Part shown: in pieces, positions 2,969 to 34,138 of the stretch
Numbering within the stretch: the stretch's first letter is position 1
How the letters are laid out: each line of letters starts with the position of its first letter
Assembly (NCBI GenBank): GCA_029935075.1
Contig: JAOZKZ010000002.1
Span: 1-39,449 of the forward strand
Length of the DNA stretch: 39,449 bases
Direction: 5' to 3'
From: Campylobacterales bacterium
Lineage (GTDB): Bacteria > Campylobacterota > Campylobacteria > Campylobacterales > QNZT01
Made by a program: the position numbers and the translations under genes
Notes under the pieces: model-generated
The model's input: only the letters and a program-made list of their open reading frames with translations
What the model was told of the DNA's origin: nothing
Database searches by the model: none

Positions 2969-4411
2969 TTAATATCTGCTTAGGTCTATTTCATTCTCTA
3001 TTAACTCAAATTGTTCTTGACTGTAAAAATTACTCCTTTCCCAAAAGTGTTTCTGGAGGTAGTTTTCGTCTTTTCTTGTGCCAGACATACAATCCACTAA
3101 ATCAAATACAAAGGCTTTTTCTTTGTCTGAATGAAGCCTTAGGACTCTCCCAATGCTTTGTAAAGTAGCCGTGAATGATTTATTACTGCTTAGGTAAACC
3201 AGGTTTTTTAACCTTGGGATGTTAATCCCTGTTGACATAATATTATACTGGGCTATTACCACCGCATTTTTTACCGTATTCAAGTATACCCTTATTTGCT
3301 CTCTTATCTTGGGCTTGGTAGTCCCTGTTATAAAGAAAATCCCTAGGGCTTGCTGAAGGACAAATGAATTTTTAACCTCAGGGGTCATTTTTTGACCGCT
3401 AAGGTCTTCCCATGTGTCTATACCGTGTTGAGTATGGTTGTAAAGACCGACTGTCACCCCTTGTAGTTTACCTAATAAAGCCTTGACAAAGTGTCGTCTC
3501 AGGGGGCTTTCTTTCATGTATTTTACTTCATCTTGATATTTTTTTATCAATTTTTTTGGCACCTGGGGATAGTTTAAGAACATGGCTACTACGGTCAGGT
3601 CAGTCGCCAAGCCAAGTTGTATCATCTCTTTGGCGTTTATGTACCTTTTAGGTGCTCCGAAGTTAGCCTCGAGGGTCATAGCGTCTATTTCAACGATAGG
3701 CAAAGACCCAGTGACACCAAGCCTTCTCTCAAAATCGTTGTCTTTTATTATGGAATTTAGTGTTTCAGCCTTGGCCTGATGTGCCTCATCGACCAAAACT
3801 ACATCAAAGCCTTTAAGGTCACTTTTCACCGCACTTTGCCATGTAGATATTACTACTGGTCTTTTTATGTCCTTGTTTTTAAACTCACCACCTATTTGCT
3901 GGACATCATCAAGAAAATCAGCCCCGTAATCTTTGAAATCTTTGTAGATTTGAGAAACGAGCATTATACTCGGCACCAAAAGCAATACATTTTTATTGTT
4001 CTGGTAGTAGTATTTAACCGCTAAAAAAATGCTCAGGCTTTTGCCTGAATTGTGATGTACTACTTCATTTTGTATATAACAACTACCATTAACATTTATA
4101 TCTATCCATTTTTGTTTAGGTAAATAATCTATACTTATAACCTTTTTATAATCTTTAAACTTACCATCAACCAAAAAATCACCTACTCTAAGGTCGTTTA
4201 TATTTCTATATTCATTATTAAAATATAAAATATGGGTATCTGCGCACTTAAATGATGAATTATCATCTAATGTTATTGTGTATCCTGGTGATTCTTTATA
4301 AAATATTTTATTTACATCTTTGTATCCAGTAGGTGATTCAATTTCGACATCTTTGTTATTCTCTTTTAAAAAAGCAAGTTCTTCAAATGTAATTTCTGTT
4401 ATCATGAACAC
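2969..4411 (-). CDS. uvsW: UvsW helicase C-terminal fragment, preceded by an intein C-piece (about 120 aa)
   Basis: The N-terminal ~120 aa carry Hint blocks (GYTITLDDNSSFKCADTHILYF; KWIDINVNGSCYIQNEVVHHN|S). The rest parallels T4 UvsW: SGKSLS, LLLVPSIMLVSQIYKDFKDY, RPVVISTWQS, VLVDEAHQ, LGVTGSL, SIGRVLRLH. The likely start is ATG 4403..4405, in an ATGA overlap with the upstream stop and preceded by GAGGTG. The track start at 4411 is a GTG. Confidence 0.85.
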   Translation of the reverse strand: MFMITEITFEELAFLKENNKDVEIESPTGYKDVNKIFYKESPGYTITLDDNSSFKCADTHILYFNNEYRNINDLRVGDFLVDGKFKDYKKVISIDYLPKQKWIDINVNGSCYIQNEVVHHNSGKSLSIFLAVKYYYQNNKNVLLLVPSIMLVSQIYKDFKDYGADFLDDVQQIGGEFKNKDIKRPVVISTWQSAVKSDLKGFDVVLVDEAHQAKAETLNSIIKDNDFERRLGVTGSLPIVEIDAMTLEANFGAPKRYINAKEMIQLGLATDLTVVAMFLNYPQVPKKLIKKYQDEVKYMKESPLRRHFVKALLGKLQGVTVGLYNHTQHGIDTWEDLSGQKMTPEVKNSFVLQQALGIFFITGTTKPKIREQIRVYLNTVKNAVVIAQYNIMSTGINIPRLKNLVYLSSNKSFTATLQSIGRVLRLHSDKEKAFVFDLVDCMSGTRKDENYLQKHFWERSNFYSQEQFELIENEIDLSRY

Positions 4412-5538
4412 ACCTCATCAAAAGAAATTGAACATTTCTTGCCTTTCGATCTATTTTCAATAGCAGGTATAAAAATCAAATTTGTTAATTTTCCAATATG
4501 ATAAGGTAAAATATTATCTACAAACCCTTGAAATATTGAATATTTATGGTCTAATTGGTAATCATCTGATTTATTCCCTCTGAGATTGAAATTATCCAAT
4601 TCTTTTAAATCGTTTTGTTTAGTGTTGTACCAAACCAACCGTTTATATACAATAAAATCTGGTATTTCGTTTATTGGAACATTACTTCCAGTTTTTTCTT
4701 TTGTTTTTCTTATTTTAAGTTTCATATAAGTTGTATTCATTCGTATTTTGCATTTTTCACTATATTCTAATATTTCATCTTGAGTTTTGTTTAATATTGG
4801 GTTTTTTCTCTTATTAATTTCTAATGTTTCTAATTCTGGTTTGTTTTCTAATGTTTGTTGCCATTTATTTTGGCGTTCATTAAACACATTAACACCTTCT
4901 ATTATCCCATATCTTTCTATACACAATTCTAACGAAAATGTTGATTGTCTTTGTGATACCAATTTTTTAGATTCCTCTTTAGTAAATCCTTGGTTTAACC
5001 AATATCCAATTTGATTTTGTTGTATATTTTTATATTTTTCGGGATTGGTTTGTTTATCTATTTTTACAGCATCTGCGCCTTTTTTACCAAATTCTGAAGT
5101 GCCGTATGATTTTGATGAATTAATATATTCATTTTTATGATACTGTTTATGGTGTTGTTTATTTAACCCTATAGACACAAATTTTTCTAAAACCATATTT
5201 TTTGAAGTATTTTCATTTAAAAATTTATACTTAAATAGGTGAATTATTCGTTCAGGGGTTAAATTATCTTTAACATCTAACATTTTTCGTATTTTTATAA
5301 ATCTATTTAAAAATCTCCTGACTAATTTTGGTGTATACTCTATATATAGTAAAAATATATCGTTTAAACTTAAATTGATTTTGTCATTATATAAATTTTT
5401 GATAGATTTTTTCATATTGTTATAGTCTACTTCTATTTCTGATTTTGTTTTGTTTTTTCTTCGTTTTCTAAAATCATCTAGCAGTATAATAGAGCCATCA
5501 TCTATATTAACATTGACTTTTGATGATGGGTGAAGACA
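4049..5538 (-). mobile_element. intein-like element in the uvsW P-loop, split over two ORFs and carrying an HNH nuclease
   Basis: It runs from Cys133 of the upstream ORF (codon 5536..5538, CLHPSSKVNV) to Asn (codon 4049..4051, VVHHN) followed by Ser+1. Removing it joins GVSSVG to SGKS, giving a Walker A motif. The segment looks visibly more AT-rich than the flanking extein DNA. Confidence 0.8.
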
Positions 5539-5934
5539 ACCTACACTTGATACACCAAGATGAGAATCATTCTCAATCAACCCTAAGAACAACCTAAGCT
5601 GGTGTTTATATGGCTTAAAGGGGATACCTAAGAGCTCTTCTTTTAAAAAGTCCATACCAGAGGGTAAATCATTATCAGGGGTTTGTATCTCTATATCAAA
5701 AATATCCTGGATTCTGTTAACGAACCCTTTCTGTGTATAAAAAAACCAGCCCTTAGGCTCGGTAGATATCTTGACGGTGTAGAATTTCTTTTTGCCATCG
5801 TATTTGCCCATTCTGTAGAAGGGATTGTGTTGATAATTTATTTCAAAGCAAGACAATTCTTGTTGTAATCTCTGGGCTTGTGCCTTCTGGGTCACAAAAA
5901 TCTCTAATTTATTGTTGTTTATTCTTGCTTCCAA
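4402..5934 (-). CDS. uvsW: UvsW N-terminal fragment (132 aa) fused to a short intein N-piece, a Lys/Asn-rich region and a C-terminal HNH nuclease
   Basis: The N-terminus (FKPYKHQ...LGVSSVG) parallels the T4 UvsW N-domain up to its P-loop. CLHPSSKVNVNIDDG follows, and the HNH motif DYQLDHKYS...TNLIFIPAIENRSKGKK lies near the C-terminus. The frame stays open for 510 codons in AT-rich DNA. The apparent start is TTG at 5934, after AAGGA. Confidence 0.8.
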   Translation of the reverse strand: MEARINNNKLEIFVTQKAQAQRLQQELSCFEINYQHNPFYRMGKYDGKKKFYTVKISTEPKGWFFYTQKGFVNRIQDIFDIEIQTPDNDLPSGMDFLKEELLGIPFKPYKHQLRLFLGLIENDSHLGVSSVGCLHPSSKVNVNIDDGSIILLDDFRKRRKNKTKSEIEVDYNNMKKSIKNLYNDKINLSLNDIFLLYIEYTPKLVRRFLNRFIKIRKMLDVKDNLTPERIIHLFKYKFLNENTSKNMVLEKFVSIGLNKQHHKQYHKNEYINSSKSYGTSEFGKKGADAVKIDKQTNPEKYKNIQQNQIGYWLNQGFTKEESKKLVSQRQSTFSLELCIERYGIIEGVNVFNERQNKWQQTLENKPELETLEINKRKNPILNKTQDEILEYSEKCKIRMNTTYMKLKIRKTKEKTGSNVPINEIPDFIVYKRLVWYNTKQNDLKELDNFNLRGNKSDDYQLDHKYSIFQGFVDNILPYHIGKLTNLIFIPAIENRSKGKKCSISFDEVCS

Positions 5935-5978: not shown

Positions 5979-6233
5979 CTAAAGAAACAACTCTGGGTAA
6001 TTTTCTATGGCAGTATCAAGGGCTATTCTATTTAATATCAGGTGGCTAGGGATATAATCCATTTTCCCTTTTTTCTTATAATACAATAACCCCTCGTCTA
6101 AACTGCCTTGTTTAGAATATGCCAAAACAGCATGTCCAGGGTATTCTTTTTTTAGTTCATAACCCATAGTAAAACAGGTATCCGTGCCTATGAACTCAAC
6201 GCATCCTATTAGTGTATAATCTTGATCATCCAT
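5979..6233 (-). CDS. hypothetical early protein ending in YPELFL
   Basis: ORF of 84 aa with C-terminus ...AIENYPELFL. Confidence 0.6.
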   Translation of the reverse strand: MDDQDYTLIGCVEFIGTDTCFTMGYELKKEYPGHAVLAYSKQGSLDEGLLYYKKKGKMDYIPSHLILNRIALDTAIENYPELFL

Positions 6234-6270
6234 AATACTCTTTTAGGAGTATTTATACCAAAGGCTCTCT

Positions 6271-6444
6271 TTAGTCTATATACAATGCTATTATATTGAA
6301 AAAAACCAATGTACCAAAAACAGCAAATATGATCTCCCAGTTAAAAATAATTCCATAAAGAACTACTAATGTATACATTACCCCTACCATGGCAAAAAAT
6401 ATTAAAATCAACCCAATGATAGTATACTGGATATTAGTCTTCAT
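6271..6444 (-). CDS. small hydrophobic membrane protein (57 aa, not in the ORF track)
   Basis: My own translation is MKTNIQYTIIGLILIFFAMVGVMYTLVVLYGIIFNWEIIFAVFGTLVFFNIIALYID*. It has two hydrophobic spans, and its start overlaps the end of the upstream small ORF. Confidence 0.5.
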   Translation of the reverse strand: MKTNIQYTIIGLILIFFAMVGVMYTLVVLYGIIFNWEIIFAVFGTLVFFNIIALYID

Positions 6445-6610
6445 TTGTAATCCTTTTTACATTACTTAAGTTAAGCTGGTCTTTATGTATTCTTTGGTAT
6501 TGTTCTTTGTTTATTATGATGTCTACTTTATCACCATGTATACCAAAAACAGTAAAATCAAAGGAATCCACCCCGTGCTTATCCGAAATAAACCTGTAAT
6601 TTACATTCAT
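6434..6610 (-). CDS. hypothetical small protein (58 aa, not in the ORF track)
   Basis: My own translation is MNVNYRFISDKHGVDSFDFTVFGIHGDKVDIIINKEQYQRIHKDQLNLSNVKRITNED*. Its ATG forms an ATGA overlap with the stop of 6607..7524. Confidence 0.45.
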   Translation of the reverse strand: MNVNYRFISDKHGVDSFDFTVFGIHGDKVDIIINKEQYQRIHKDQLNLSNVKRITNED

Positions 6611-7524
6611 AGCAATACCTCTGGGTAATCTTTTTGTATTTGTTTCATATTATTTTCCTTTATTTTTGTTTCTTCTTGGTTATATTTATTCTTGTAGTGG
6701 TATTTTTTGCTATATATTTCTCTTGCCTTATACATATAAAACAATGCCAAAGGGTTGTCTATATTAACCAGGTGTTCGTGGTGTACCAAAAATGTATTCC
6801 CTTTGAACATACCTTTGTAATCAGGTGCCTTATGATTATTAAGATATTCGATAAAAACATCACAAGAAATAAGTGCATTAAAGTATATCATTTTTTCGTT
6901 TTCTTTGGATTCTTTGGTTATGCCTTGATCGTATGAAATATTATCAAATTCATAAGTATTATTCATAATAACATCATAACATCTCTCGGTGTAGTTGTCA
7001 GAGCTTATGTTCTTTTGTTCTTTGTATTTATGGATTCTTTTCATGGTAAATACATTCTTATACATACTGGTCTTCAGGTATCTAAGGGTGTCTTTATCCT
7101 GGAATGTCCAGGCTTCCGTAAACGGAAAATAACTCCAGTATCTTGAGTTATTTAGGTCAAAATCTTTGGTTAGTTTTTCTGGCTTACCGTACTGAAAATT
7201 GACAAGCTGTATTTTCGTACTGAGGTCAATAGTATCTGATGTGCTTGTGCTTTGGATATAAATGTTTTGAGTAAAATCCTTGATGTCTTTGTTTAATACA
7301 TCTATATAATCTTGTGTTATATTATAAGCCTTGTCATAGTCCTCTTCGGTATAAAAATACACATCTATATCACTTGAGGTACTCTGTATGCCTTGGCTTT
7401 TCTGAACCTCGGTAAGCACAAACCCACCAGCCAGGAAAAAATCCACCTGTAAATCCTCAAAAAGAGATAAGACTTCCTTTGAAAACTTGGGGCTTATGTT
7501 GTATTTTATTGGTACATCTGGCAT
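6607..7524 (-). CDS. hypothetical protein with a possible nucleotidyltransferase-like GG...DxD signature, ending in YPEVLL
   Basis: FFLAGGFVLTEVQKSQGIQSTSSDIDVYF loosely fits the hG[GS]-x(n)-DhDh pattern, though the spacing is longer than typical. The C-terminus is ...IQKDYPEVLL. Confidence 0.6.
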   Translation of the reverse strand: MPDVPIKYNISPKFSKEVLSLFEDLQVDFFLAGGFVLTEVQKSQGIQSTSSDIDVYFYTEEDYDKAYNITQDYIDVLNKDIKDFTQNIYIQSTSTSDTIDLSTKIQLVNFQYGKPEKLTKDFDLNNSRYWSYFPFTEAWTFQDKDTLRYLKTSMYKNVFTMKRIHKYKEQKNISSDNYTERCYDVIMNNTYEFDNISYDQGITKESKENEKMIYFNALISCDVFIEYLNNHKAPDYKGMFKGNTFLVHHEHLVNIDNPLALFYMYKAREIYSKKYHYKNKYNQEETKIKENNMKQIQKDYPEVLL

Positions 7525-7533
7525 CTTCTCTCC

Positions 7534-7779
7534 TTATAGTAAAAACTCAGGGTAGTCTTCAATCCGCCCTTGGTAGTTGTTTTGGTAGTTGGTTTCATCC
7601 ATGTCATGGTCTATGTAAATATAGTAACTGTTTTCATCCACTGGGGGTGTCTGGTACATTATTACACAATGAAAGCCAGTATCTCTCTTTTCAAGCACCC
7701 AGTACACTTTGATGTTGTTTTGGTTTTCATACAGGATATCACCCTCCCTGAGTTCATGGAACTTTTTCATCTCTTTCAT
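7534..7779 (-). CDS. hypothetical early protein ending in YPEFLL
   Basis: ORF of 81 aa with C-terminus ...RIEDYPEFLL. Confidence 0.6.
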   Translation of the reverse strand: MKEMKKFHELREGDILYENQNNIKVYWVLEKRDTGFHCVIMYQTPPVDENSYYIYIDHDMDETNYQNNYQGRIEDYPEFLL

Positions 7780-8183
7780 AGAAAGTACTCTGGGTTATCA
7801 TTGACCATTTTGTTACACAACTCAGAAACACTCTCAGGGATACTCTTGTTTAACTGGGCTCTTAGTCTTTTCTCTCTTATTATGTACTCGTTTTTTAATA
7901 TATCAAGGCAAATGAGTTTTTGAATAAGGGCTTCCTTTTCGGTCTTATATACCCAAAATTCCCTGTCTGTATCGAGGAGTTCTTCAAGGTCTACAAAACG
8001 CACTTTTTCTTGTTTTTGTTTATAAGAAAGATTTTTGATATCGGTAGTAGCCACAGGGGAAGATACTCCATTAGTATACATAACAGCCCCATTTATCTCG
8101 TTGTCTACCATAGAGCATATAACAATATCCCTGAAAAATATAACACCACCCGACATCTTAGGTGGGTTCATTCCATAAAGCAC
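7776..8183 (-). CDS. hypothetical early protein ending in NPEYFL
   Basis: ORF of 135 aa with C-terminus ...VNDNPEYFL. Its start overlaps the MoxR stop, and its own stop overlaps the next gene's start. Confidence 0.6.
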   Translation of the reverse strand: MLYGMNPPKMSGGVIFFRDIVICSMVDNEINGAVMYTNGVSSPVATTDIKNLSYKQKQEKVRFVDLEELLDTDREFWVYKTEKEALIQKLICLDILKNEYIIREKRLRAQLNKSIPESVSELCNKMVNDNPEYFL

Positions 8184-9307
8184 TAAGAATCCTTATGCCA
8201 TGCCATCAACTCTGACAAAAACCAATGGTCAGGGGTGGCTTCCTTAAAACCATCGTAATAAAAAGCCTCTATTTCTTTTTTATCAGAATCTTTCCATGTC
8301 TTAAGAATCCCGGCTGCTACCTCGATGTTCAATGACACCACATAAACTGCTACCTCTTTGGCACTAACCGCACTATTCTCGGATAGGTGTTCCTTGAGCA
8401 TCTTTTCTGCCAGTTCAGTAGCAGAGATTACTTCCATCTTTTTGGTAATTTTAGAGAGCTTTTTAGCCATCTTTTTTTGCTGGTCTTTGGTGTCAATCTT
8501 TGAATCACCTATTGTATTAATGATATCTTCTACCGAGATTACATTGATATAGTTTCTCAGGTAATGGAAAAAAGAAGCACCTACTGTCTTCCCTACCTTG
8601 GATAAGATTAGTGTATTCAGCAAAGGTGAATCTTTTGGTGTCACCTTAAGAATCCTGGACAAAGACTCCCAGGCTCTTGGAGACGAGCCTTTTTCAGTAT
8701 CATCCTCAGGGTTGTATACCAATCTCTCTGGGTATTCTGCCAAAAAGTCAGTAATAACAGGGTTAAGTTCCTTTTCTCTTGCATATTTTAAGAACCCTTC
8801 TATAGATGCTTCTACATCAAGGGTAATAAAACGGTCTTCTAATGCCGCATCAAAATCCGAGGAATCGTACTCATCGGATGGGTTATCTGCTACTATGGTA
8901 AGTGTATTCAAGTCATCCAAAAAACCCAAAGAGTGCTCTTGAATTTTACCCTCAAGAACCATTTGAAGTGATGCCTGACGAATTGATAAGCTAGCTCTTC
9001 CTAGTTCATCCATGAATACTATTACATGTTTACCATCTTCGTTTGCTTTCTGAATTCTTTGAAGCCATACTGGTTTAGCCCATGTGGTGACTTTATCACC
9101 TCTGTGGTCTTCTGAAATGACAGGCATACCCATCAAGTCACTTTCATCCATTACCGTAAGTTGGAGGGTTTCGCACCAAAAACCCTCTTCTTCAGCAAAT
9201 TGCTTAACAATCTCAGTCTTACCTATACCGTGTGGTCCTATCATATGAACCGCATTTTGACTCTGGTGTGCTATCTTAAGTATATCTTTCATCTTTTCTA
9301 TTTTCAT
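8183..9307 (-). CDS. MoxR/AAA_5-class AAA+ ATPase
   Basis: It has Walker A MIGPHGIGKTE and Walker B HVIVFMDELGRA, followed by ...LEDRF. This pattern is MoxR/CbbQ/CobS-like rather than clamp-loader-like. Confidence 0.75.
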   Translation of the reverse strand: MKIEKMKDILKIAHQSQNAVHMIGPHGIGKTEIVKQFAEEEGFWCETLQLTVMDESDLMGMPVISEDHRGDKVTTWAKPVWLQRIQKANEDGKHVIVFMDELGRASLSIRQASLQMVLEGKIQEHSLGFLDDLNTLTIVADNPSDEYDSSDFDAALEDRFITLDVEASIEGFLKYAREKELNPVITDFLAEYPERLVYNPEDDTEKGSSPRAWESLSRILKVTPKDSPLLNTLILSKVGKTVGASFFHYLRNYINVISVEDIINTIGDSKIDTKDQQKKMAKKLSKITKKMEVISATELAEKMLKEHLSENSAVSAKEVAVYVVSLNIEVAAGILKTWKDSDKKEIEAFYYDGFKEATPDHWFLSELMAWHKDS

Positions 9308-9343
9308 TCGTTCTCCTTGGTTAGATTAAAGCCCCAGGGGCTC

Positions 9344-9383
9344 TCTCTTTTTATACCCTATTATACCACACCTTTGCTTAAAA
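9344..9383 (-). promoter_or_regulatory. early-class promoter/leader, 40-nt copy A (identical to 34099..34138)
   Basis: The sense strand reads TTTTAAGcaaaggtgTGGTATAATagggtataaaaagaga. A GCCCCtGGGGC hairpin follows, then AAGGAG before the MoxR ATG. Confidence 0.75.
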
Positions 9384-9388
9384 GCAGG

Positions 9389-9421
9389 TTAAAGATACCT
9401 TAAAGATACCTTAAAGAAACA
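9389..9421. repeat. tandem 11-mers ttaaagatacc x2 plus ttaaagaaaca
   Basis: The third unit is the real stop codon and last codons of ORF 9411..9647. The two perfect copies lie immediately downstream of it on the sense strand. Confidence 0.8.
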
Positions 9422-9647
9422 ACTCAGGGTTATTTTTTAACAGGTAGTTTACTATCTCTTTTTCGTCTTTTAGGTCAGGGATTTTATACACCACAGGGTA
9501 AGGAATATTTTCACTAACCCTCCCCCAATCTGTGACTTCGTAGCCCTTTGGGGTTTTTTTTAGGTAAGTATCTCTTTTGAAATCATTATACAGAATTTTC
9601 TCAAATCTGTATTTTAGGTCATGCCAACCAGTGTTAAAGTGTTCCAT
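9411..9647 (-). CDS. hypothetical early protein ending in NPELFL
   Basis: ORF of 78 aa with C-terminus ...LLKNNPELFL. Confidence 0.6.
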   Translation of the reverse strand: MEHFNTGWHDLKYRFEKILYNDFKRDTYLKKTPKGYEVTDWGRVSENIPYPVVYKIPDLKDEKEIVNYLLKNNPELFL

Positions 9648-9792
9648 TTTGATCCTTTTGAAAGTTTCTTTCTACATTTTTCCAGATTTGTTTGACCAAC
9701 TCGAGGCGTTTTCTTTGATAAAAAGTTATCAAATCCTGGTCTGTCTTGGGGTCTAGTCTGATGATTAAATCATCGAGTTCATTTAGGTTCAT
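9634..9792 (-). CDS. hypothetical small protein (52 aa, not in the ORF track)
   Basis: My own translation is MNLNELDDLIIRLDPKTDQDLITFYQRKRLELVKQIWKNVERNFQKDQNGTL*. It is preceded by AAGGAAAGGG and the promoter at 9819..9842. Confidence 0.5.
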   Translation of the reverse strand: MNLNELDDLIIRLDPKTDQDLITFYQRKRLELVKQIWKNVERNFQKDQNGTL

Positions 9793-9818
9793 TTTGTCCC
9801 TTTCCTTAAATATGTTAT

Positions 9819-9842
9819 ATTATACCATAAATTACCTTAAAA
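9819..9842 (-). promoter_or_regulatory. early-class promoter, TTTAAG-N11-TATAAT
   Basis: The sense strand reads TTTTAAGgtaatttaTGGTATAATataac. Confidence 0.65.
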
Positions 9843-9885
9843 GGACATAAAGATTTTAAACTAACCTGAAAAATTAATCCTAAAA

Positions 9886-10386
9886 TCAATCCCAGAGTGC
9901 TCGTATATTTGAACAACTTTTGGTGTATTCTTTACCTTCGTACTCCTCTGTGTATTCAGTAATCCCGAACAACAGTTTACCGAACTCTTCGTATTTTTTG
10001 TCTATCTCTTTATCTGATTCTACTGTACAGTGATCCTCTAGTTCTTCTATGTCTTTTAAGGTCTTCAAGAGCTTCAGGAGCAAAGCTTTTTCTTTTTGAT
10101 CATTCATGTAATGAGTATCCTTGCCCCAGTGCTCTTCCATGTCTTTCAGTTTAAATTCCAAAAGGTTCATAAAAAAAGCATAATCATACCATCGGTCATT
10201 CCATATTAGTTTTTTGTATCTCCATAGGTTACTAAACCCTGTTTTAAAAGAGTAAAAATTGCTCCTTAAATCACCAAAGAAGTAACTAATCTCAAATGAT
10301 ATTTTATCCAATAGGTCTTCATCGTCTTTAAGGCACATATATTTTTCTTGTGCTTGCTCTAGGTCTTTTAGGTCTGTTGTGTTCAT
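9886..10386 (-). CDS. hypothetical early protein
   Basis: ORF of 166 aa preceded by AAAAAGGAAC. No motif recognised. Confidence 0.6.
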   Translation of the reverse strand: MNTTDLKDLEQAQEKYMCLKDDEDLLDKISFEISYFFGDLRSNFYSFKTGFSNLWRYKKLIWNDRWYDYAFFMNLLEFKLKDMEEHWGKDTHYMNDQKEKALLLKLLKTLKDIEELEDHCTVESDKEIDKKYEEFGKLLFGITEYTEEYEGKEYTKSCSNIRALWD

Positions 10387-10397
10387 CTTGTTCCTTT

Positions 10398-10502
10398 TTA
10401 TAGATAGTATTCAGGGTGTGTATTTATATTCCCGAAGTATTCTTTTATATTCAAGCCGTGTTCTACATTAGAGCCTTTATGATTGAAAAAAGTAATATTA
10501 TA
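10398..10502 (-). pseudogene. start-less 3' remnant of a PE-tail family gene
   Basis: The frame is open for 34 codons, YNITFFNHKGSNVEHGLNIKEYFGNINTHPEYYL*. There is no ATG or GTG, only a TTG that would give 18 aa. An in-frame TGA lies immediately upstream, inside IR-R. Confidence 0.35.
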
Positions 10503-10551
10503 TCAAATCAACCCAGAAAACCACAGTGACTTGAGTCCTGTGGATGAATGG
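10497..10551 (-). repeat. IR-R, copy 2 of the 55-bp inverted repeat (terminator plus promoter, facing minus)
   Basis: It is the exact reverse complement of 1..55. The hairpin and T-run map to 10515..10543, and TGATATAAT maps to 10497..10505. Confidence 0.9.
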
Positions 10552-11038: not shown

Positions 11039-11046
11039 TATAAATA
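11039..11046 (+). promoter_or_regulatory. T4-type late promoter TATAAATA
   Basis: An exact TATAAATA lies 22 nt before the ATG of the capsid gene. Confidence 0.65.
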
Positions 11047-11068: not shown

Positions 11069-12244
11069 ATGGCAGATAAGTTATTATACGAAAATTTGTT
11101 GAATGAAGAACAAGGATTCGATGGACAAACATCAGGAACGATAGGAACGACAGTCTCATCTAATGCAGAAGGCTCAACATCAACCACAGATATAGCACAA
11201 ACAGCACCAAAGATTGGGTTTGCTCACTCTGTGGCTTCTAAAACACTCCCTGCGGTACTGGGATATGTTCAGCCTATGTCCAGTCCATCAGGGTTTGTTT
11301 TCGCCATGAAAAGAGGTCCTGCGGTAAATCAAACCACGGATATGCCTTTTTTGGATGATGGTACAGGCACCCCAGAATCAGGCACAGCAGGGTCAGAAGA
11401 CCTACAGATCACCAGAACATCCGTGAATACTAGTATAAGAGAAGTCTTGATTGACTGTACCAATGAACTAACCCAGGATATTCAGAGCCTTTTTGGTCAA
11501 GACTTCAATAAACTAATGCAGGTTTATTTGTATTATGATGGTACCGATATAGACATGATTGATCCATTCGAGACCAATACACTTGATGACAAAGAATCAA
11601 CAGACCTTAGGTTAAGTAAATTCTTTATCGAATACGCCACATGGAGAATGTCAAGAAAAACTAACCAGGATTTTGTCACATGGGCACAAGGAATAGCCTC
11701 TGATTTGGGTACGGTTACTATAACCGATACAGCCAATTTAAAAGACCTTAGACTAGCAGTAGCAGAAATGAAGGCAAGTGTATACAAAAATACAGGAAAA
11801 ACAGGCAGAACATGGGTCTTGGCATCGCCAGAAAATATCAATTATTTACTAATGACATCAAGCACATGCTCCCCTGATAATAAGGTAATGAGAAAAGGCA
11901 AAAGAATAGCCAGGTCAGAAGACTATAACTATGTATTTAGTTGTGGTGAGACTGATTACTACCAGGACTCTAATATCACTGATGACATGTATGTAGGGCT
12001 TAGTGGTCAAGCTGGGGTTTCTAGTCTTTTTTATACTCCTTATAAAGAATATTTTGTCCAGGGTGGTGAAGACTACTATACAGGGCAGAGTAATATCTGG
12101 TTTAGACTAAGGGACGACTGGGTTACTAACCCTCTGGATAACTTCGGTGGTGTTAATGATTTAGGTACCCCTGTGGTAGGAACAGGGTCTGATTATATAG
12201 TCAAAGCAATAGTAGATATTACAGCGGTTCCCGTACTGAGCTAA
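11069..12244 (+). CDS. gp23: gp23-like major capsid protein
   Basis: LPAVLGYVQPMSSPSGFVFAMKRG parallels T4 gp23 IAFDICGVQPMNSPTGQVFALR. Also present are CTNELTQDIQSLFGQDF, GRTWVLASPENINYL and GVSSLFYTPY. Confidence 0.75.
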   Translation: MADKLLYENLLNEEQGFDGQTSGTIGTTVSSNAEGSTSTTDIAQTAPKIGFAHSVASKTLPAVLGYVQPMSSPSGFVFAMKRGPAVNQTTDMPFLDDGTGTPESGTAGSEDLQITRTSVNTSIREVLIDCTNELTQDIQSLFGQDFNKLMQVYLYYDGTDIDMIDPFETNTLDDKESTDLRLSKFFIEYATWRMSRKTNQDFVTWAQGIASDLGTVTITDTANLKDLRLAVAEMKASVYKNTGKTGRTWVLASPENINYLLMTSSTCSPDNKVMRKGKRIARSEDYNYVFSCGETDYYQDSNITDDMYVGLSGQAGVSSLFYTPYKEYFVQGGEDYYTGQSNIWFRLRDDWVTNPLDNFGGVNDLGTPVVGTGSDYIVKAIVDITAVPVLS

Positions 12245-12245
12245 G

Positions 12246-13169
12246 ATGCTTGACCTCTTAATAAATAATTCCCTGAATCTGACAGAGGGAACAGACCAGT
12301 ATGACATCTCTGGGGCGGATTTCTTCAATGGTCTGATAAAAGAGAACTATAACATCTCCTTGGGGTATCATATATGTGAGGTTTTTCCTTTAAATAGTCC
12401 TTACGGTGCTGTTTATGTATCGGAGAGAAACTCTGAAACAAATGATTTCAGGGTCATAAAAAAAGACATTCAGACCAAAACATCCACTCTAATGACAGGG
12501 TTTACTCAAGAAGTATACCAGGATATGGAGAAAATGTATCAAACCTCGCCAAAAAGAACCTCTGGCAAGGTCTTATCAGGGATAACAGCAAGAGAAGAGA
12601 ACCAGAGACTCTTGATGTTAATGGGCCTAGAGGCAGAAACAAAAGGAACATTAACGATACAAGATTCCAATAACCTTGAGAGTATTATCCTTCAATTATC
12701 AAGAAAAGTCTCAGAATCAGTCCTCGAGATGAACCAGGATACTTACAAAACACTGGATTCATTCTGTGTTCTTGACAGGAGATATGCTGCGGCTGTCCTG
12801 GGGTCTTTTAACTTCATGACCGAGGGTAAAGAGCGTTCTTTATTTGTAGGAAGGGTAGGAAGAACGGATTATTATATTAACCCTTTTCCTAATACCTCCT
12901 CTGAGTTCGATGATTCCTTTGATTACTCTTATGAGATAGAAGACACCCCCGTGCCTAATTATTGTTATGTGGGTCTGGTTCATGACACCCCAGGGGTAAG
13001 TAGCATAATTTTTGCTCCTTATAAGTACGAAAGACAATACATAACCGACCCTGGTACAGGGAATATAGTCTTGATTTTAAGAGACCGTTATGGGCTGGTA
13101 ATGAGCCCTCTGCATAAGCCCTTGGAGAACAGATCAATGTTACATAAGTTTATTATAGAAGGTGCCTGA
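12246..13169 (+). CDS. gp24: gp24-like capsid vertex protein (paralogue of the preceding gene)
   Basis: YHICEVFPLNSPYGAVYVS and YVGLVHDTPGVSSIIFAPYKY...LILRDRYGLVMSPL align with the corresponding motifs of 11069..12244. Confidence 0.55.
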   Translation: MLDLLINNSLNLTEGTDQYDISGADFFNGLIKENYNISLGYHICEVFPLNSPYGAVYVSERNSETNDFRVIKKDIQTKTSTLMTGFTQEVYQDMEKMYQTSPKRTSGKVLSGITAREENQRLLMLMGLEAETKGTLTIQDSNNLESIILQLSRKVSESVLEMNQDTYKTLDSFCVLDRRYAAAVLGSFNFMTEGKERSLFVGRVGRTDYYINPFPNTSSEFDDSFDYSYEIEDTPVPNYCYVGLVHDTPGVSSIIFAPYKYERQYITDPGTGNIVLILRDRYGLVMSPLHKPLENRSMLHKFIIEGA

Positions 13170-24825: not shown

Positions 24826-27800
24826 ATGAATAAACCAGTAATAACTACCCAAGAAATATGGGCACAAGGAGCAACTCCACCAAATAAACTCAAGCCAGTC
24901 CAGACCAAGATATCACAAGGCTGGAGCTACGGGGAAAAACCACCTCATAATGAGTTTAACTGGTTTTTCGATGTTACTTCTGAAATGTTTTTAAATATAC
25001 AAGAAAATGGAGTACCATCATGGTCAGGAGATATTAGTTATAATACTAGTGCATTGGCATGGTATGACAATAAAACATGGAAGAGCCTTGAACCTAATAA
25101 CACTAACCACATACCTATGGTTTCTTCTTTATGGTGGAAAGAACTTACTTTAAGTGCATTTATACCTACTTTAGATACCCCTGTGTTATCGGGTGTTTCT
25201 GAAGCATTTGAGGAAACCAGTATAGAGATCATTATAGATAATTATGATTCTTTGGGTACTTATACACTTTATGCCAATCAAGGCACTTATTATAGGACTG
25301 GGGATACCATCACATGGAATATACCAGATGTTCCTATAGACACCAATACTGTTATGGAAGTTTATATTGATAAATTAAATTATTACACATCAGTAACAGG
25401 GGAACATAATGTATTAATAAAAAATATATCTATAGTAGATGACCAAATATTATTGTATAATTCAATAACCATGGATGCTTTTGATGATTTAGTTAATACT
25501 GAACTTTCATCCCTTGATGCTGTTGAGGTAGACACTACGGATGTATTGGATAATGCTTATACTAGCACTACTTCTACAATCTATCTTGATAATAATATGG
25601 TAGATGTGCAAGTAGGCGAAACAATAACTACTGATAATGAGAGTTTTGTAGTTCAAGCAGTAGATAATGATGGTAATTATACAGACCATTATACAAAATA
25701 CTGGGTCACTCCAGTATCTATTTTATCTCAAATCCCTGTTACGGCTTATTTAAATACACACAGAGCAAGATCAACAGATGTAATACAAGATGGCGGAGAT
25801 AATGATTGGACTGGGATTAATAATTCAAGTACAATAGAAAATCCAATAGATGTAAGAGATGATCATCGGGCTTCTGGTACAAGTATTATTTATTTAGACA
25901 ATTCAAGAGTAGAAGCAAGAGTAGGTGAGACTTATTGTTCTGAACTGGGTGATACTTTTATTGTAGAGACTATTAACAATGATGGAACCAAGAATAGTAT
26001 TGATGGTGTTGATATAATATCATGTGGAGTAGCCCACACCATGGTCATAAGAAATGGTGGAGAAGTATGGGGTACAGGGGGAAATGCTTATGGTCAGCTG
26101 GGTACTGGAAATAATGATAATGAGTCCACATTTATCAGAGAAGATCTTGAGATAGAGGATGCCGAACAAATAGCATGCGGTGAATATTTTACTATAATAA
26201 TAAGAAATGGTGGAGAAGTATGGGGGACAGGGTATAATAGTCATGGTCAGCTGGGTCTCGATAACACAGGACATAAGAACACTTTTTTGAGAGAGTCACA
26301 AAATTTCACTGATGCTAAACAAGTAGCATGTGGATTACACCATACGGCTGTCATAAGAAATTTAGGTCAATTATGGAGTAGTGGTTTAAATGATGATGGT
26401 GAACTGGGTTTAAATAATAGAGATCCCAAATCAACATTAACCAGAGAAAGCCAAGAATTTACTGATATAGAACGAGTATCAGCTGGTCAACAATATACAT
26501 CTGTTATAAAAGATGGGCAGGTATGGGGTACTGGGAACAATGGCAGTGGTGAATTGGGTACTAATAATAAAAATAATCAGTCAACATTAACCAGAGAAGC
26601 CCTTGAGATAGAGGATGCCGAACAAATAGCATGTGGATATTTTCATACTGTTATTATACGAGATGGTGGTCAACTATGGACCACGGGTCGTAATAATTAT
26701 GGTCAACACGGAAATGGCACCAATAATAATAAATCTACCTTTACCAGAGAATCACAAGAATTTACTGATGTAGATAAAATAGCTACTGGACGAAATCAAA
26801 CAATCATTGCAAGAAATGGTCAGGTATGGGGAGTAGGTCGAAATGACCATGGTCAATTAGGTATTGGTAATGTATCAACCCAATATTTATTTATCAGAGA
26901 AGTTGAAAATCTTACTAATGTTACTAATGTTGCTTGTAGTGAATTTTTTTCTATGGCTATAAGTGATCAGCAAGTATGGGGCACTGGGGAAAATGCGCTT
27001 GGGCGACTAGGTACAAATGATACTACAGACAGGCGTACATTCAGCAGGGATGCTAGAGAGATTGATGATGTGCTATCATCTTCTTCTTATTATTTAAAAT
27101 ATTGGGTAAATCCTGTAGAAAACCTTCAAGCAGTGCCTTTTAAAGTATATCCTTTGGTTAATATTACTTTAAAAACCACGGAAGAAGATGTTGATTTAAT
27201 ACCCGATAATATCGACTTAAACAGCATCGTAGGTGGAACAGATATGATAGATTTAGATTGGGCAAGCACTACTACATCGGTTTATATAGACAATGAATTT
27301 TTTAATGTTAAGATGGGCGATACTTATGTTTCTGATACTGGAGAACCTTTTAGTGTTGAGGTTGTTAATAATGATGGAAATACTATTTTGACTAATGTTA
27401 AGGTCGTGGCAGTAGGTGAGTATCATACCATGGTTATAAGAAATAATGGAGAAGTATGGGGTACAGGAAAGAACTACAATGGGGAACTAGGATCTGTGGG
27501 TGATAATTATAGATCTAAATTTACCAGAGAATCACGAAATATAGATGATGCTCTGGGTATTTCTTGTGGAGACAAGAGCACCATGATAATAAGAGAAGGG
27601 GGTCAAGTATGGGGCACTGGGGAAAACAACTATGGTGAATTAGGTACAAATGACCAATATGATAGGACTAAGTTTACCAGAGAATCACAAAATTTCACTG
27701 GGGTTACAGATATATCATGTGGACATAATTTTACAATGATTGTAAAATCAGGAGAGGTTTGGAGTACTGGGCGTAATTATGGTCAGTTTGGTATAAATAA

Positions 27801-28677
27801 CACTAATAATAAAAAAACCTTTACTAGAGAAATTTTGCATATAGATGATGCTGAACAAATAGCATGTGGACATGACCATGCCATGATAATAAGAGAAGGG
27901 GGTCAAGTATGGGGAGCAGGACTAAATGACTATGGTCAATTAGCTATTAATAATAGATATGATCAAAGAACTTTTATTAGAGAATACCTTGGTATACATG
28001 ATGCTGAACAAATAGCATGTGGCAAACAGATTACCATGATTGTAAAGTCAGGACAGGCATGGGGGTCTGGGGTTAACGGTGACGGAGAACTAGGAAATGA
28101 TCACCTAAGTTATATAACCACCTTTACTAGAGAATCTTTACATATAGATAATGTTGAACAAGTAGCATGTGGTCGCAATTATAGTATGCTTATATCTAAT
28201 GGTCAAGTATATGGAACAGGGCGTAACCCTTATGGTCCGCTGGGCACTGATGATACTAGTGAGAAACATAACTTTACCAGAGACGATCAAAACACCATTA
28301 ATGCTGAAGATATATCCTGTGGGGGTAATTATGGTACTAGTATGATCATAAAAGACGGGCAGGTGTGGGGTTCTGGTTATAACTACAACGGAGAATTAGG
28401 TACAAATAACCGTACGAATTATTCTATATTTACTAGGGATGATAGAGAAATAGATGATGTAGTGATGCCAAAAACGTACCATGATAGATACTGGATAACA
28501 CCAACTAAACCACTCACCATATTACCTACAGCAGTGTATACATATACACCTACAGTAATAAACCAAGAGTTCAAGGACGAGATTATTAATCCTACAAGAA
28601 GTTTTAAAACAATAGTATATTTGCCCGATTTGGCTAAGATGGAGGAATTCACAGGGACTTTATTGAAAACCTTATAA
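24826..28677 (+). CDS. giant tail-fibre-like protein with two 7-bladed RCC1-repeat propellers
   Basis: The N-terminal GWSYGEKPPHNEFNWFF is a common tail-fibre motif. It carries 14 repeats of the type CGxxHTxxIxxGGxVWGTGxNxxGQLG, in two sets of seven (about 26000..27050 and 27400..28470). Confidence 0.8.
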   Translation: MNKPVITTQEIWAQGATPPNKLKPVQTKISQGWSYGEKPPHNEFNWFFDVTSEMFLNIQENGVPSWSGDISYNTSALAWYDNKTWKSLEPNNTNHIPMVSSLWWKELTLSAFIPTLDTPVLSGVSEAFEETSIEIIIDNYDSLGTYTLYANQGTYYRTGDTITWNIPDVPIDTNTVMEVYIDKLNYYTSVTGEHNVLIKNISIVDDQILLYNSITMDAFDDLVNTELSSLDAVEVDTTDVLDNAYTSTTSTIYLDNNMVDVQVGETITTDNESFVVQAVDNDGNYTDHYTKYWVTPVSILSQIPVTAYLNTHRARSTDVIQDGGDNDWTGINNSSTIENPIDVRDDHRASGTSIIYLDNSRVEARVGETYCSELGDTFIVETINNDGTKNSIDGVDIISCGVAHTMVIRNGGEVWGTGGNAYGQLGTGNNDNESTFIREDLEIEDAEQIACGEYFTIIIRNGGEVWGTGYNSHGQLGLDNTGHKNTFLRESQNFTDAKQVACGLHHTAVIRNLGQLWSSGLNDDGELGLNNRDPKSTLTRESQEFTDIERVSAGQQYTSVIKDGQVWGTGNNGSGELGTNNKNNQSTLTREALEIEDAEQIACGYFHTVIIRDGGQLWTTGRNNYGQHGNGTNNNKSTFTRESQEFTDVDKIATGRNQTIIARNGQVWGVGRNDHGQLGIGNVSTQYLFIREVENLTNVTNVACSEFFSMAISDQQVWGTGENALGRLGTNDTTDRRTFSRDAREIDDVLSSSSYYLKYWVNPVENLQAVPFKVYPLVNITLKTTEEDVDLIPDNIDLNSIVGGTDMIDLDWASTTTSVYIDNEFFNVKMGDTYVSDTGEPFSVEVVNNDGNTILTNVKVVAVGEYHTMVIRNNGEVWGTGKNYNGELGSVGDNYRSKFTRESRNIDDALGISCGDKSTMIIREGGQVWGTGENNYGELGTNDQYDRTKFTRESQNFTGVTDISCGHNFTMIVKSGEVWSTGRNYGQFGINNTNNKKTFTREILHIDDAEQIACGHDHAMIIREGGQVWGAGLNDYGQLAINNRYDQRTFIREYLGIHDAEQIACGKQITMIVKSGQAWGSGVNGDGELGNDHLSYITTFTRESLHIDNVEQVACGRNYSMLISNGQVYGTGRNPYGPLGTDDTSEKHNFTRDDQNTINAEDISCGGNYGTSMIIKDGQVWGSGYNYNGELGTNNRTNYSIFTRDDREIDDVVMPKTYHDRYWITPTKPLTILPTAVYTYTPTVINQEFKDEIINPTRSFKTIVYLPDLAKMEEFTGTLLKTL

Positions 28678-28680
28678 ATA
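28673..28680 (+). promoter_or_regulatory. T4-type late promoter TATAAATA
   Basis: An exact match overlaps the stop codon of 24826..28677. Confidence 0.55.
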
Positions 28681-28722
28681 AACCAGAAAAGAGAATGAAA
28701 GAGAAGGAAAGAGAGGAAAGAG

Positions 28723-30891: not shown

Positions 30892-30894
30892 ATA
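30887..30894 (+). promoter_or_regulatory. T4-type late promoter TATAAATA
   Basis: An exact match overlaps the stop codon of 28723..30891 and lies 16 nt before the next ATG. Confidence 0.55.
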
Positions 30895-30910
30895 AACAAA
30901 AAGGAAAAAC

Positions 30911-31291
30911 ATGCTTGAAAGAACTACAATAGTAAGAGGAGCATTAAGAAGCCCTGCGGTAAGAGAAGTAATAAATACTGATAAAAAAATAGACAAAAAA
31001 AATCTTCAAAGATACACAATACAAAATGAAGTATTTGACCTAGAAGACTCAGTAGCCGATAATGCCAAAATGATTGCTCTGCTGATGAAATTGTGCTCTA
31101 GGTTTTACGATACATTCACCGATACTCAAAAAGCAAGACTATCGGCTGAAGACAAAACACTAATAGAATACACATTTTCAAAACACCTTGAAACAGAAAC
31201 AAGAGGTGATGTTCAACTTGCGAATGAAGGCACAGAAATGATAGACAGAGTTTTTGATAGACAAGCTCAAGTTAGTACTATAATAAACTAA
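30911..31291 (+). CDS. hypothetical late protein
   Basis: ORF of 126 aa preceded by AAAGGAAAAAC. No motif recognised. Confidence 0.55.
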   Translation: MLERTTIVRGALRSPAVREVINTDKKIDKKNLQRYTIQNEVFDLEDSVADNAKMIALLMKLCSRFYDTFTDTQKARLSAEDKTLIEYTFSKHLETETRGDVQLANEGTEMIDRVFDRQAQVSTIIN

Positions 31292-31300
31292 AGGAAAAAT

Positions 31301-34098: not shown

Positions 34099-34138
34099 TC
34101 TCTTTTTATACCCTATTATACCACACCTTTGCTTAAAA
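34099..34138 (-). promoter_or_regulatory. early-class promoter/leader, 40-nt copy B (identical to 9344..9383)
   Basis: The sense strand reads TTTTAAGcaaaggtgTGGTATAATagggtataaaaagaga, then AGGAACAAAATG. Confidence 0.75.

Follow-up and report, generated by a model that had tools for sequence, protein, structure and literature searches.

A short C-terminal tag on many otherwise unrelated small phage proteins and its possible recognition by a phage MoxR/zincin-vWA pair

Results

Six tagged frames beside a MoxR gene

The stretch of DNA analysed here, referred to as the window, comprises the 39,449 nucleotides of contig JAOZKZ010000002.1 (positions 1 to 39,449, assembly GCA_029935075.1) and carries genes of an uncultured T4-like phage, among which six minus-strand frames between 5979 and 10502 end in a common peptide with the core PE..L, which we call the tag. 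The six C-termini and their coordinates had been listed in a first-pass annotation made from the sequence, and an open reading frame (ORF) list together with a six-frame scan returned the same ones. The frame at 5979-6233 (84 aa, ...IENYPELFL) belongs to a small family with tagged orthologues on the metagenomic contigs L001, L002 and L003; in the alignment of this family (A4), PELFL is invariant at an overall identity of 38-52%, and a TATAAATA motif is located just upstream of the gene, at 6250-6257. The largest carrier (6607-7524, 305 aa, ...QKDYPEVLL) is nucleotidyltransferase (NTase)-like and falls in phrog_4400, and its orthologues match the Pfam family Gad2 (PF26128); a tblastn search with this protein found nothing. 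The 81-aa protein encoded at 7534-7779 (...IEDYPEFLL) is an orphan for which no homologue was found in the loci read. It is preceded by a gene for a 135-aa protein (7776-8183, ...VNDNPEYFL), whose family is always found directly downstream of MoxR, with an ATGA overlap. A search with the single 135-aa sequence returned only the protein itself; a profile search returned 25 homologues of 22-37% identity, in which P131 and E132 are invariant. The AlphaFold2 model of this protein (predicted local distance difference test score, pLDDT, 90.5) has a beta domain and two long helices, with a helical turn at PEY, and Foldseek gave no match to it in the PDB below E = 0.38.

The two remaining frames are located upstream of MoxR. 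One encodes a 78-aa orphan (9411-9647, ...LKNNPELFL) and is the last gene of a short operon. The other (10398-10502, 34 open codons, ...NTHPEYYL) lies within the leader of the gene at 9886-10386. It contains neither ATG nor GTG, so that its earlier description as a start-less remnant is a fair one, and a TTG start would yield only 18 aa; its tail is the sole part that resembles other loci. An extended -10 site is found at 10497-10505 and a TATAAATA motif at 10421-10428, inside the frame. We interpret it as what is left of a tagged gene, situated between an extended -10-like site and the start of the 9886-10386 gene.

The operon of tagged genes is headed by an untagged gene for a MoxR-class AAA+ ATPase of NorQ/CbbQ-like type (8183-9307, minus strand; Pfam AAA_5, phrog_1297), and a second untagged minus-strand gene, at 32806-34089, encodes a fusion of a zincin (HExxH) metallopeptidase with a vWA domain (DUF2201_N plus DUF2201 by Pfam), named zincin-vWA below. 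An extended -10 promoter-like site, TGGTATAAT, lies upstream of MoxR on the same strand (9360-9368; a consensus match only). The shared minus-strand operon context that had been proposed for the tagged frames agrees with what we find, since all of them are co-oriented and extended -10 sites are present at 9360-9368 and 9819-9827. The carriers are also otherwise unrelated, as had been claimed: the five tail-trimmed window proteins give no mutual BLASTP match at E < 1e-4, and no family shared among the tagged ORFs was found in Pfam or PHROGs.

The tag is not a chance C-terminus and recurs in related phages

Exactly six of the 4922 stop-to-stop frames of the window end in PE..L, all of them on the minus strand between 5979 and 10502. 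Amino-acid composition predicts 0.008 tagged ORFs among the 47 real ORFs, against the five that are present, and the probability of finding at least five is 2.7e-13; the objection that the motif is merely a common C-terminal sequence is therefore rejected. Internally, PE..L occurs twice in 12,174 positions.

A search of relatives for the same tail had been suggested, and it turned up tags on many ORFs per related contig as well as in a cultured phage. MoxR has 86 metagenomic homologues, and contigs encoding such homologues were compared for tags. We counted 15 tagged ORFs on L001, seven on L002, 11 on L003, 18 on L006 and 41 on L005 together with other pieces of the same 125-kb contig; the tails in L001, L002, L003, L005 and L006 follow the form ...[K][E]x[Y/H/F]PE[Y/L][F/Y/L]L. 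A pattern scan of IMG/VR yielded more tag-rich contigs (L008, with 12 tagged ORFs, L010, L011, L017 and L019), and an IMG/VR scan with the single MoxR protein gave no confirmed match. A profile search with the tail alone was judged unable to reach significance, given its about 20 bits and a library of 1.8e9 proteins.

Among cultured phages, Vibrio phage phiKT1024 comes closest in its MoxR (37% identity). In the 183 of its 191 kb that were read, at least 74 ORFs, corresponding to about a fifth of its genes, end in ...PE..[I/V/L]; all of them are annotated as hypothetical proteins, and none is found in the structural module. The cultured lytic Vibrio phages in which we found the tag are phiKT1024, Pv27, phiTY18, Va1, SRILMA and TDDLMA. 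Phage phiKT1024 also encodes a ClpP (L026 24741-25325, record 132784-133368; Pfam CLP_protease, 4e-48), which is non-structural and separate from the prohead protease.

The tag is not a general feature of T4-like phages, as there is none in the 41 kb read of the Campylobacter T4-like phage NCTC12673, and the bacterial MoxR loci that we read have no tags either. In the stretches read of the N4-like Alteromonas phage AD45-P1 there is exactly one perfect tag, on gp027 (...KEDVERHPEYFL). This gene, which ends in ...ERHPEYFL, corresponds to L029 10971-11177 on the minus strand (record 32970-33176); it may have been acquired horizontally, or the distant MoxR/zincin-vWA pair of AD45-P1 may have a small set of clients. 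The same phage has four adjacent plus-strand ORFs (L029 36762-38741) with similar ...[E/Q]QLRKEQ.. ends, which are probably paralogues or bear a different shared tail.

The window itself shows no DNA similarity to phage records when the region is compared by blastn, and its best UvsW match, to Campylobacter T4-like phages, has an identity of 32%. Judged from these comparisons, the clade of the window has no close cultured relative.

Information is confined to the last ten residues, which directly precede the stop codon

The consensus of the tag is Φ(-10) K(-9) E(-8) x [Y/H/F](-6) P(-5) E(-4) [Y/L](-3) [F/Y/L](-2) [L or I](-1)-COOH, and in phiKT1024 as well as in the clade the information content rises above background nowhere but at positions -10 to -1. 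The motif is thus short and terminal, as first described, although it extends over about 10 residues and not over the six to seven noted originally. In the 66,000 residues of long frames of the clade, all 69 occurrences of PE[YLFV][FYL]L directly precede a stop codon, and 39 of the 42 occurrences in phiKT1024 are exactly at the stop. A short linear motif that depends on a free C-terminus is expected to occupy this position, and the strictly terminal location suggests that recognition includes the free alpha-carboxylate. The proposal of a short linear C-terminal tag is supported on both counts, by the limited length of the informative segment and by its position.

The tag is carried by unrelated accessory proteins and is kept within families

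After removal of their tails, 95 tagged proteins fell into 76 BLASTP clusters, 69 of which are singletons; conservation confined to positions -10 to -1 across so many clusters is what is expected of a portable motif. The carriers are mostly small, with a median of about 103 aa in phiKT1024, and include the NTase of about 300 aa and DUF4116-like repeat proteins, one of whose tagged genes lies on the opposite strand. Three carriers have only 11-14 residues between a hydrophobic helix and the tag. Replication proteins, enzymes of nucleotide metabolism, structural proteins, MoxR and zincin-vWA are never tagged, and the tagged arrays are located outside the structural modules. On L002 (2110-5183, plus strand, and 8113-9021, minus strand), five DUF4116-like paralogues share a C-terminal block of about 30 residues that ends in the tag (...SLKVQ.VAVNQD.KALPLTTPEFKEAYPEYFL), one of the paralogues being on the opposite strand.

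Whether a protein is tagged is a stable property of its family. For three of the window carriers there are tagged orthologues of 22-52% identity in which the Pro, the Glu and the last residue are invariant. The NTase family comprises 33 representative clusters in 1.84e9 proteins, about 27 of them tagged; a PDB sequence search with the NTase gave nothing significant. Conversely, the small untagged neighbours at 6271-6444 and 6434-6610 have orthologues that are also untagged. Loss of the tail in relatives, which had been named as a possible refutation of a functional tag, does occur occasionally (the NTase of L006, an L001 ORF ending in HSEYFL, and P0114), but the tail is mostly retained.

Genomes are internally uniform in the form of their tag, and lineages differ

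In the clade of the window, 110 of 110 pooled tags end in Leu, and over all clade loci all but one do so. By contrast, 62 of the 74 phiKT1024 tags end in Ile, and those of L007, L008, L011 and L019 end in Ile or Val. On L032, an 8-kb contig that was binned with a Sulfurovum metagenome-assembled genome (MAG) and has a MoxR of 43% identity, the tags read YPQYFI, YPQYLI and YPHYLI, with Gln or His replacing Glu. Gln also replaces the Glu in P0123, and the protein cluster P0125 has PA instead of PE. The Glu is consequently not invariant, contrary to what the six window copies had suggested. Thus, the tag has one form within a genome and different forms in different lineages. This pattern, which a generic stability cap does not predict, argues for a common, co-evolving reader.

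The tag is selected as a peptide and doubles as a ribosome-binding site

The first-pass annotation had pointed out that the codons of the tags differ and had concluded that conservation is at the peptide level and does not reflect a DNA element. The codons do differ in the window, and they differ at a larger scale in its relatives, although the six window copies share more DNA than first noted (ACCCWGAG...CTWTRA). In a codon test on 90 called tagged genes of the clade, all four Pro, all six Leu, both Glu and both Tyr codons are in use. The 45 tags that form a 4-nt ATGA overlap with the next gene favour CCG (28/45) and GAG (43/45) and have YTA as the last codon, and CCGGAG places a GGAG Shine-Dalgarno (SD) sequence 8 nt before the downstream ATG. 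In the 42 tags that are followed by a gap, CCG is found in 2/42 and GAA in 26/42, all six Leu codons occur and the stops are mostly TAA; these tags retain the peptide, and their codon usage falls back to that of the genome. The same codon split was observed independently in phiKT1024, which has 45 tags without an overlapping gene.

Overlap geometry follows the tag as well. Overlaps other than ATGA are absent from the tagged genes of the clade, compared with 27 in untagged genes. Of the 13 untagged genes with an ATGA overlap, 12 have no such peptide and the thirteenth has the decayed tag HSEYFL. In the PQ lineage (L032), GGAG is absent at the position of the tag. What is conserved is therefore the peptide, and conservation of the sort shown by DNA or RNA cassettes, such as promoter early stem-loop (PeSL) or integron attC-like elements, is not observed. 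Because synonymous codons vary and non-overlapping tags keep the peptide, we conclude that the tag is selected as a peptide and that its use as a ribosome-binding site is a secondary overlay. The earlier conclusion stands as regards peptide selection, and requires the addition of a nucleotide overlay (CCG-GAG, giving GGAG) at ATGA overlaps.

MoxR, zincin-vWA and NTase travel with the tag

The genes that the window and its clade share with phiKT1024 are the replisome core, a gp24-like capsid gene, a lysozyme-like gene, one small tagged family, and the genes for MoxR, DUF2201 (zincin-vWA) and NTase. Only the latter three are common to both beyond the core, the gp24-like and lysozyme-like genes and the small tagged family, and they are located inside or beside the tagged arrays; on L032, zincin-vWA, NTase and MoxR are adjacent, in that order. 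In every tag-rich lineage read in which the MoxR gene is included, MoxR and tags occur together. It should be noted that the NTase link between the clade and phiKT1024 is based on one weak match, between L003 12603-13559 (one of three clade orthologues scanned) and a tagged 379-aa gene adjoining MoxR in phiKT1024 (27% identity over 124 residues, E = 4e-5).

The window MoxR matches Pfam AAA_5 at 1.8e-8 and has the invariant GxxGxGK and DE motifs. Its AlphaFold2 model (pLDDT 86) has NorQ/NorQD as the best Foldseek match (E = 2e-9), followed by CbbQ (1.6e-7). The AAA_5 match, the Walker motifs, the structure and the vWA partner encoded at 32806-34089 together place it with the NorQ/CbbQ-type ATPases. 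Orthologues of zincin-vWA are present on L005, L006 and L032 and in phiKT1024, and neither HExxH+H nor the metal ion-dependent adhesion site (MIDAS) motif DxSGS..T..D varies among the phage DUF2201 proteins. As the MIDAS is intact in tag-bearing and tag-poor phages alike, its integrity does not discriminate between them. We presume zincin-vWA to be the partner of MoxR and part of the candidate reader. In the tag-rich clade, zincin-vWA has a conserved C-terminus of its own (...GH-x-[V/I/L]-[Y/F]-[D/N]-[I/L]-x-[D/N]-A), which is shared by the proteins of the window (32806-34089, minus strand), L005 (5133-6551), L006 (2920-4275) and L032 (135-1394); in analogy to NorD, the protein might dock on MoxR by this end.

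Extended -10 sites of the form TGNTATAAT, again consensus matches only, number 17 in the window against 4.2 expected, an approximately four-fold excess. They are found on the minus strand before MoxR (9360-9368), before the gene pair 9634-9792/9411-9647 (9819-9827), at 10497-10505 and before zincin-vWA (34115-34123), and T4-type TATAAATA motifs precede plus-strand structural genes at 11039, 13748, 19647, 22966, 28673 and 30887. These promoter-like sites suggest early, host-sigma-type expression of the tagged operons, MoxR and zincin-vWA.

Other features of the window

The UvsW-type helicase gene of the window (2969-5934, minus strand) appears to be interrupted. In the ORF at 4402-5934, the first 133 aa correspond to the N-terminal part of the helicases that are intact on L001, L002 and L003 and the rest is an insert (phrog_5104); the ORF at 2969-4411, which overlaps that at 4402-5934 by 10 nt, contains the remaining helicase domains and a weak intein-splicing match. 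L007 has an intein/Hint and TnsA-like insert at the same UvsW-type gene.

Two adjacent gp23-like capsid genes (11069-13169, plus strand) encode proteins of 391 and 307 aa, which presumably serve as major capsid protein and as vertex protein of gp24-like type; a tblastn search with the first of these proteins found no match in cultured phages. Unusual large genes on the late strand (24826-32803, plus strand) encode a protein of 1283 aa in which RCC1 repeats are numerous, a protein of 722 aa that has one TPR, and a papain-family cysteine protease of 500 aa that contains DUF4214 repeats. None of the three has a counterpart in phiKT1024, and we therefore discarded the TPR, papain-like and RCC1-repeat proteins as receptors of the tag.

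The product of a gene at 37316-37939 (minus strand) is an outer-membrane beta-barrel protein of 207 aa (Pfam OMP_b-brl, 2.7e-15) with a typical ...YKF end, which implies a Gram-negative host. The extended -10 promoters, the binning of L032 with a Sulfurovum MAG and the UvsW matches to Campylobacter phages hint at a host among the Campylobacterota.

Discussion

A docking signal for a phage machine

The tag is likely to have a single common partner, as the first-pass annotation had supposed. Of the candidates that it named, we favour a machine of the phage itself. One co-evolving receptor would read the tag through its free carboxyl end, and this receptor would be the NorQ/CbbQ-type MoxR AAA+ ring of the phage together with its zincin-vWA partner, a combination of AAA+ ring and HExxH protease that may be regarded, by an analogy of our own, as a split, FtsH-like pairing. 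Such a machine would select accessory "effector" proteins of the phage for remodelling or for proteolytic processing and turnover, and the effectors would end up processed, turned over or chaperoned. We favour the MoxR/zincin-vWA pair because no other machinery outside the replisome co-occurs with the tag, and because the MoxR model is nearest to NorQ/CbbQ, for which C-terminal docking has a precedent in NorQD. In the NorQD structures published in 2026 (PMC13036017), the hydrophobic extreme C-terminus of the vWA partner docks on the post-sensor-1 loop inside the ring, and deletion of two C-terminal residues abolishes binding.

The pair is nevertheless proposed as a tentative candidate for the partner, and by itself this identification is on the doubtful side. 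Should it be correct, turnover or processing on the one hand and folding or localisation on the other appear to us evenly balanced as outcomes. Taken as a whole, a docking tag that is read by MoxR/zincin-vWA and leads to effector remodelling or processing is the best explanation that we can offer, and we hold it with somewhat less than even confidence. Its boldest form, in which a decapeptide on 10-25% of the genes docks on the MoxR ring plus zincin-vWA, with the tagged NTase as a third component, would amount to a proteome-wide addressing system and seems rather unlikely to us.

Several observations weigh against recognition by MoxR/zincin-vWA. Known MoxR ATPases are remodellers and chaperones of metal insertion, and the class is not known to unfold substrates for a protease. 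MoxR, zincin-vWA and the tagged genes would all be expressed from host-type extended -10-like sites, so that a late clearance of the tagged proteins is not obviously timed by transcription. Having such a pair is not sufficient for having tags: AD45-P1, with a distant MoxR/zincin-vWA pair, has one tag in the stretches read, Atu_ph07, likewise with a distant pair, has none in the 41 kb read, and the bacterial MoxR loci have none. In the 135-aa carrier, the tail is modelled by AlphaFold2 with confidence (pLDDT 88) and could pack on its own protein. Furthermore, the split between Leu and Ile coincides with phylogeny, so that co-evolution cannot be separated from descent. When the MoxR proteins of the L-type and I-type groups were compared, no residue was found that changes with the tag variants: 22 positions differ, including the post-sensor-1 loop, and because the split equals the phylogeny, covarying residues are uninformative as evidence for a receptor. 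In the lineage with Gln instead of Glu, MoxR shows no accompanying change from a basic to a neutral residue.

The more specific proposal of the first-pass annotation, that the tag Glu is a ligand of the vWA MIDAS, fared less well. MoxR/vWA is the best-associated candidate, and the MIDAS is intact in the phage DUF2201 proteins, but the tag Glu is Gln in L032 and P0123 and Ala in P0125, which argues against Glu as an obligatory ligand. The terminal carboxylate could substitute for it at the MIDAS.

Alternative explanations

A machine of the host might read the tag instead, either as a degron of an AAA+ protease (ClpXP, ClpAP, Lon or FtsH) or through a carboxylate-binding domain of the PDZ or TPR type, with the effect that early proteins would have short lifetimes or a common location. 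The strictly C-terminal, hydrophobic tag does resemble carboxylate-dependent degrons and ligands, known examples of which are the LAA-COOH degron of ssrA and the class II PDZ ligand Φ-x-Φ-COOH; its variants could track the lineage of the host (Vibrio for phiKT1024 and possibly Campylobacterota for the clade of the window), phiKT1024 encodes a ClpP of its own, and phages with distant MoxR/vWA pairs are largely without tags. However, the tag does not match ...LAA-COOH, the ssrA-like motif recognised by ClpX, and it resembles no bacterial degron known to us. It fits the PDZ class II form ([Y/L]-[F]-[L/I]-COOH), yet a Pfam search of 40 of the 47 window ORFs found no PDZ domain, and the one TPR match is a single repeat in the 722-aa protein of the late-strand block, which phiKT1024 does not share. 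In addition, within the set of phages with γ-proteobacterial hosts the tag is abundant in one phage group only, and it is hard to see what a lytic phage would gain from placing a host degron on as many as a fifth of its genes. A host reader is unlikely in our view. A tail that acts without any reader, as a self-contained cap (a helix with a Pro-Glu N-cap and a hydrophobic turn) that stabilises small proteins or blocks exoproteolysis, is improbable. A weak hydrophobic periodicity upstream, at -10, -13 and -15, and the helical turn in the AlphaFold2 model of the 135-aa protein (pLDDT 88 for the tail) are in its favour, but nothing would oblige a generic cap to occupy the extreme end in 69 of 69 cases, or to have Leu in one lineage, Ile in another and PQ in a third; the three carriers in which the tag comes 11-14 residues after a hydrophobic helix have no domain to cap, and untagged small proteins of the same operons stay untagged in their orthologues.

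That the peptide is a by-product of a nucleic-acid element, for example a translational-coupling signal (SD, spacer and ATGA) or a PeSL-like recombination junction for cassette shuffling, could account for the half of the tags that overlap the next start and in which CCG-GAG gives GGAG 8 nt before the ATG, for the lack of other overlap geometries in tagged genes (0, versus 27 in untagged genes) and for the tail-only relic at 10398-10502. As the sole cause, such an element is largely refuted and thus highly improbable: 42 clade tags and 45 phiKT1024 tags without overlap keep the peptide with genomic codons, all synonymous codons occur, the PQ lineage lacks GGAG at the position, opposite-strand and operon-terminal genes are tagged, and 12 of 13 untagged ATGA-overlap genes have no peptide. 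We are equally sceptical of the sliding clamp, phage gp45-like or host beta, which the first-pass annotation had put first among the possible partners and to which accessory proteins would be tethered for replication or clamp-dependent transcription. The tag is an acidic-plus-aromatic extreme C-terminus, its spacing [K/Q]-x-x-[Y/F]-x-x-[Y/L]-[F/Y] is, as a lead only, PIP-box-like, and the clamp gene is conserved in all tag-bearing lineages. Replication proteins of the same genomes, however, have other acidic-hydrophobic ends: in phiKT1024 the DNA polymerase ends in ...ESLDDW, RNase H in ...ADDFGW and gp41 in ...YAELGL, and in the window RNase H ends in ...GKLVLF and gp32 in ...ELLDSL, so that the tag is not shared with them. 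Moreover, the Atu_ph07 polymerase has a classical ...DFADLFGF end, yet there are no tags in the stretch read, the T4-like Campylobacter phage has none in 41 kb, and dozens of competing ligands would be expected to disturb replication. Finally, the tail might serve in virion targeting, so that many small anti-defence proteins would enter the capsid and be injected together with the DNA, with MoxR/zincin-vWA acting in assembly or processing. Internal proteins of T4 do use a short targeting peptide, a late-type TATAAATA motif precedes one tagged gene (5979-6233), and one tagged carrier is Gad2-like, Gad2 being an anti-Gabija protein (bioRxiv 10.1101/2023.05.01.538930). Iyer et al. 2021 (PMC7824862) proposed a role in virion assembly or processing for the phage MoxR/metallopeptidase-vWA pair. 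We nonetheless consider virion targeting very unlikely, since the tagged arrays lie behind host-type extended -10 sites and outside the structural modules, the tag, unlike the T4 capsid targeting sequence, is C-terminal and on genes behind host-type -10-like sites, and packaging of 40-70 different proteins would be unprecedented; the papers found contain no virion proteomics for these phages.

Implications

If a single tail marks a fifth of the genes of a phage, the corresponding "hypothetical proteins" would constitute one regulated class with a common handle, and an addressing system of the sort outlined above would place the entire set of effectors of the phage under post-translational control, by selecting them for processing, timed destruction or delivery. 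Docking on MoxR/zincin-vWA could also give a function to the widespread and unexplained phage pair of MoxR and metallopeptidase-vWA. In practical terms, the tag would provide a sequence rule for finding candidate accessory, host-takeover and anti-defence genes in metagenomic phages, and a peptide of 10 residues is a possible tool for steering the fate of proteins in infected cells. The cultured lytic Vibrio phages that carry it make the question accessible to ordinary genetics and pull-downs. Finally, the use of the same codons for the tag and for the ribosome-binding site of the next gene is a clean example of overlapping constraints.

Comparison with known systems

We searched the literature for the tail strings, the cultured phages, phage MoxR/vWA and shared C-terminal motifs, and found no description of the tag, in agreement with the earlier remark that it is not recognisable from any described family; papers behind subscription were thinly covered. 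Several known systems resemble it in part. The C-terminal degrons of AAA+ proteases (ssrA for ClpXP and ClpAP, and the non-polar tails read by FtsH and Tsp) are likewise short, portable, hydrophobic and active only at a free C-terminus, but ssrA has ALAA where the tag has YPEYFL, and it is added co-translationally by transfer-messenger RNA (tmRNA), whereas the tag is encoded in the genome on fixed genes. Clamp-binding tails (T4 gp43, gp33 and gp55; QL[SD]LF) are also acidic-aromatic and located at the extreme C-terminus of unrelated T4-like proteins; they differ in consensus, the replication proteins that we checked are untagged, and up to 74 carriers far exceed any set of clamp clients.

The T4 capsid targeting signal, the C-terminal signals of type IV secretion systems (T4SS), the C-terminal domain (CTD) signals of type IX secretion systems (T9SS) and the Plasmodium export element (PEXEL) share with the tag the principle of one short signal that brings diverse, fast-evolving effectors to one machine. 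The T4 signal, however, consists of about 10 N-terminal residues on late-expressed internal proteins and ends in an LxE site at which the prohead protease cleaves, and the secretion signals are longer or less defined. PeSL cassettes and ATGA coupling in the hyperplastic regions of T4-type phages have in common with the tagged loci arrays of small early ORFs with high turnover, and the codons of the tag supply an SD sequence, but PeSLs are intergenic DNA or RNA elements, and the tag is a translated peptide that is kept even without a downstream gene.

The group 2.2 jumbo phages (PMC7824862) have the same two-gene pair of MoxR and metallopeptidase-vWA, for which virion assembly was proposed and no tag mentioned, and the pair of Atu_ph07 comes without tags in the 41 kb read. 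The closest precedent is NorQD: the window MoxR model is nearest to NorQ/CbbQ and its vWA partner has an intact MIDAS, and in NorQD a free hydrophobic C-terminus is read by a MoxR ring, which is the logic that we propose for the tag. There, however, the docking end belongs to a single vWA partner and not to dozens of clients, and it shows no sequence relationship to the tag; in addition, the phage vWA protein has a zincin domain that NorD lacks. C-terminal tags as a class are well known, and to our knowledge the new element is that a phage genome encodes such a tag on 10-25% of its genes, in variants that differ between lineages and with codons that also encode an SD sequence.

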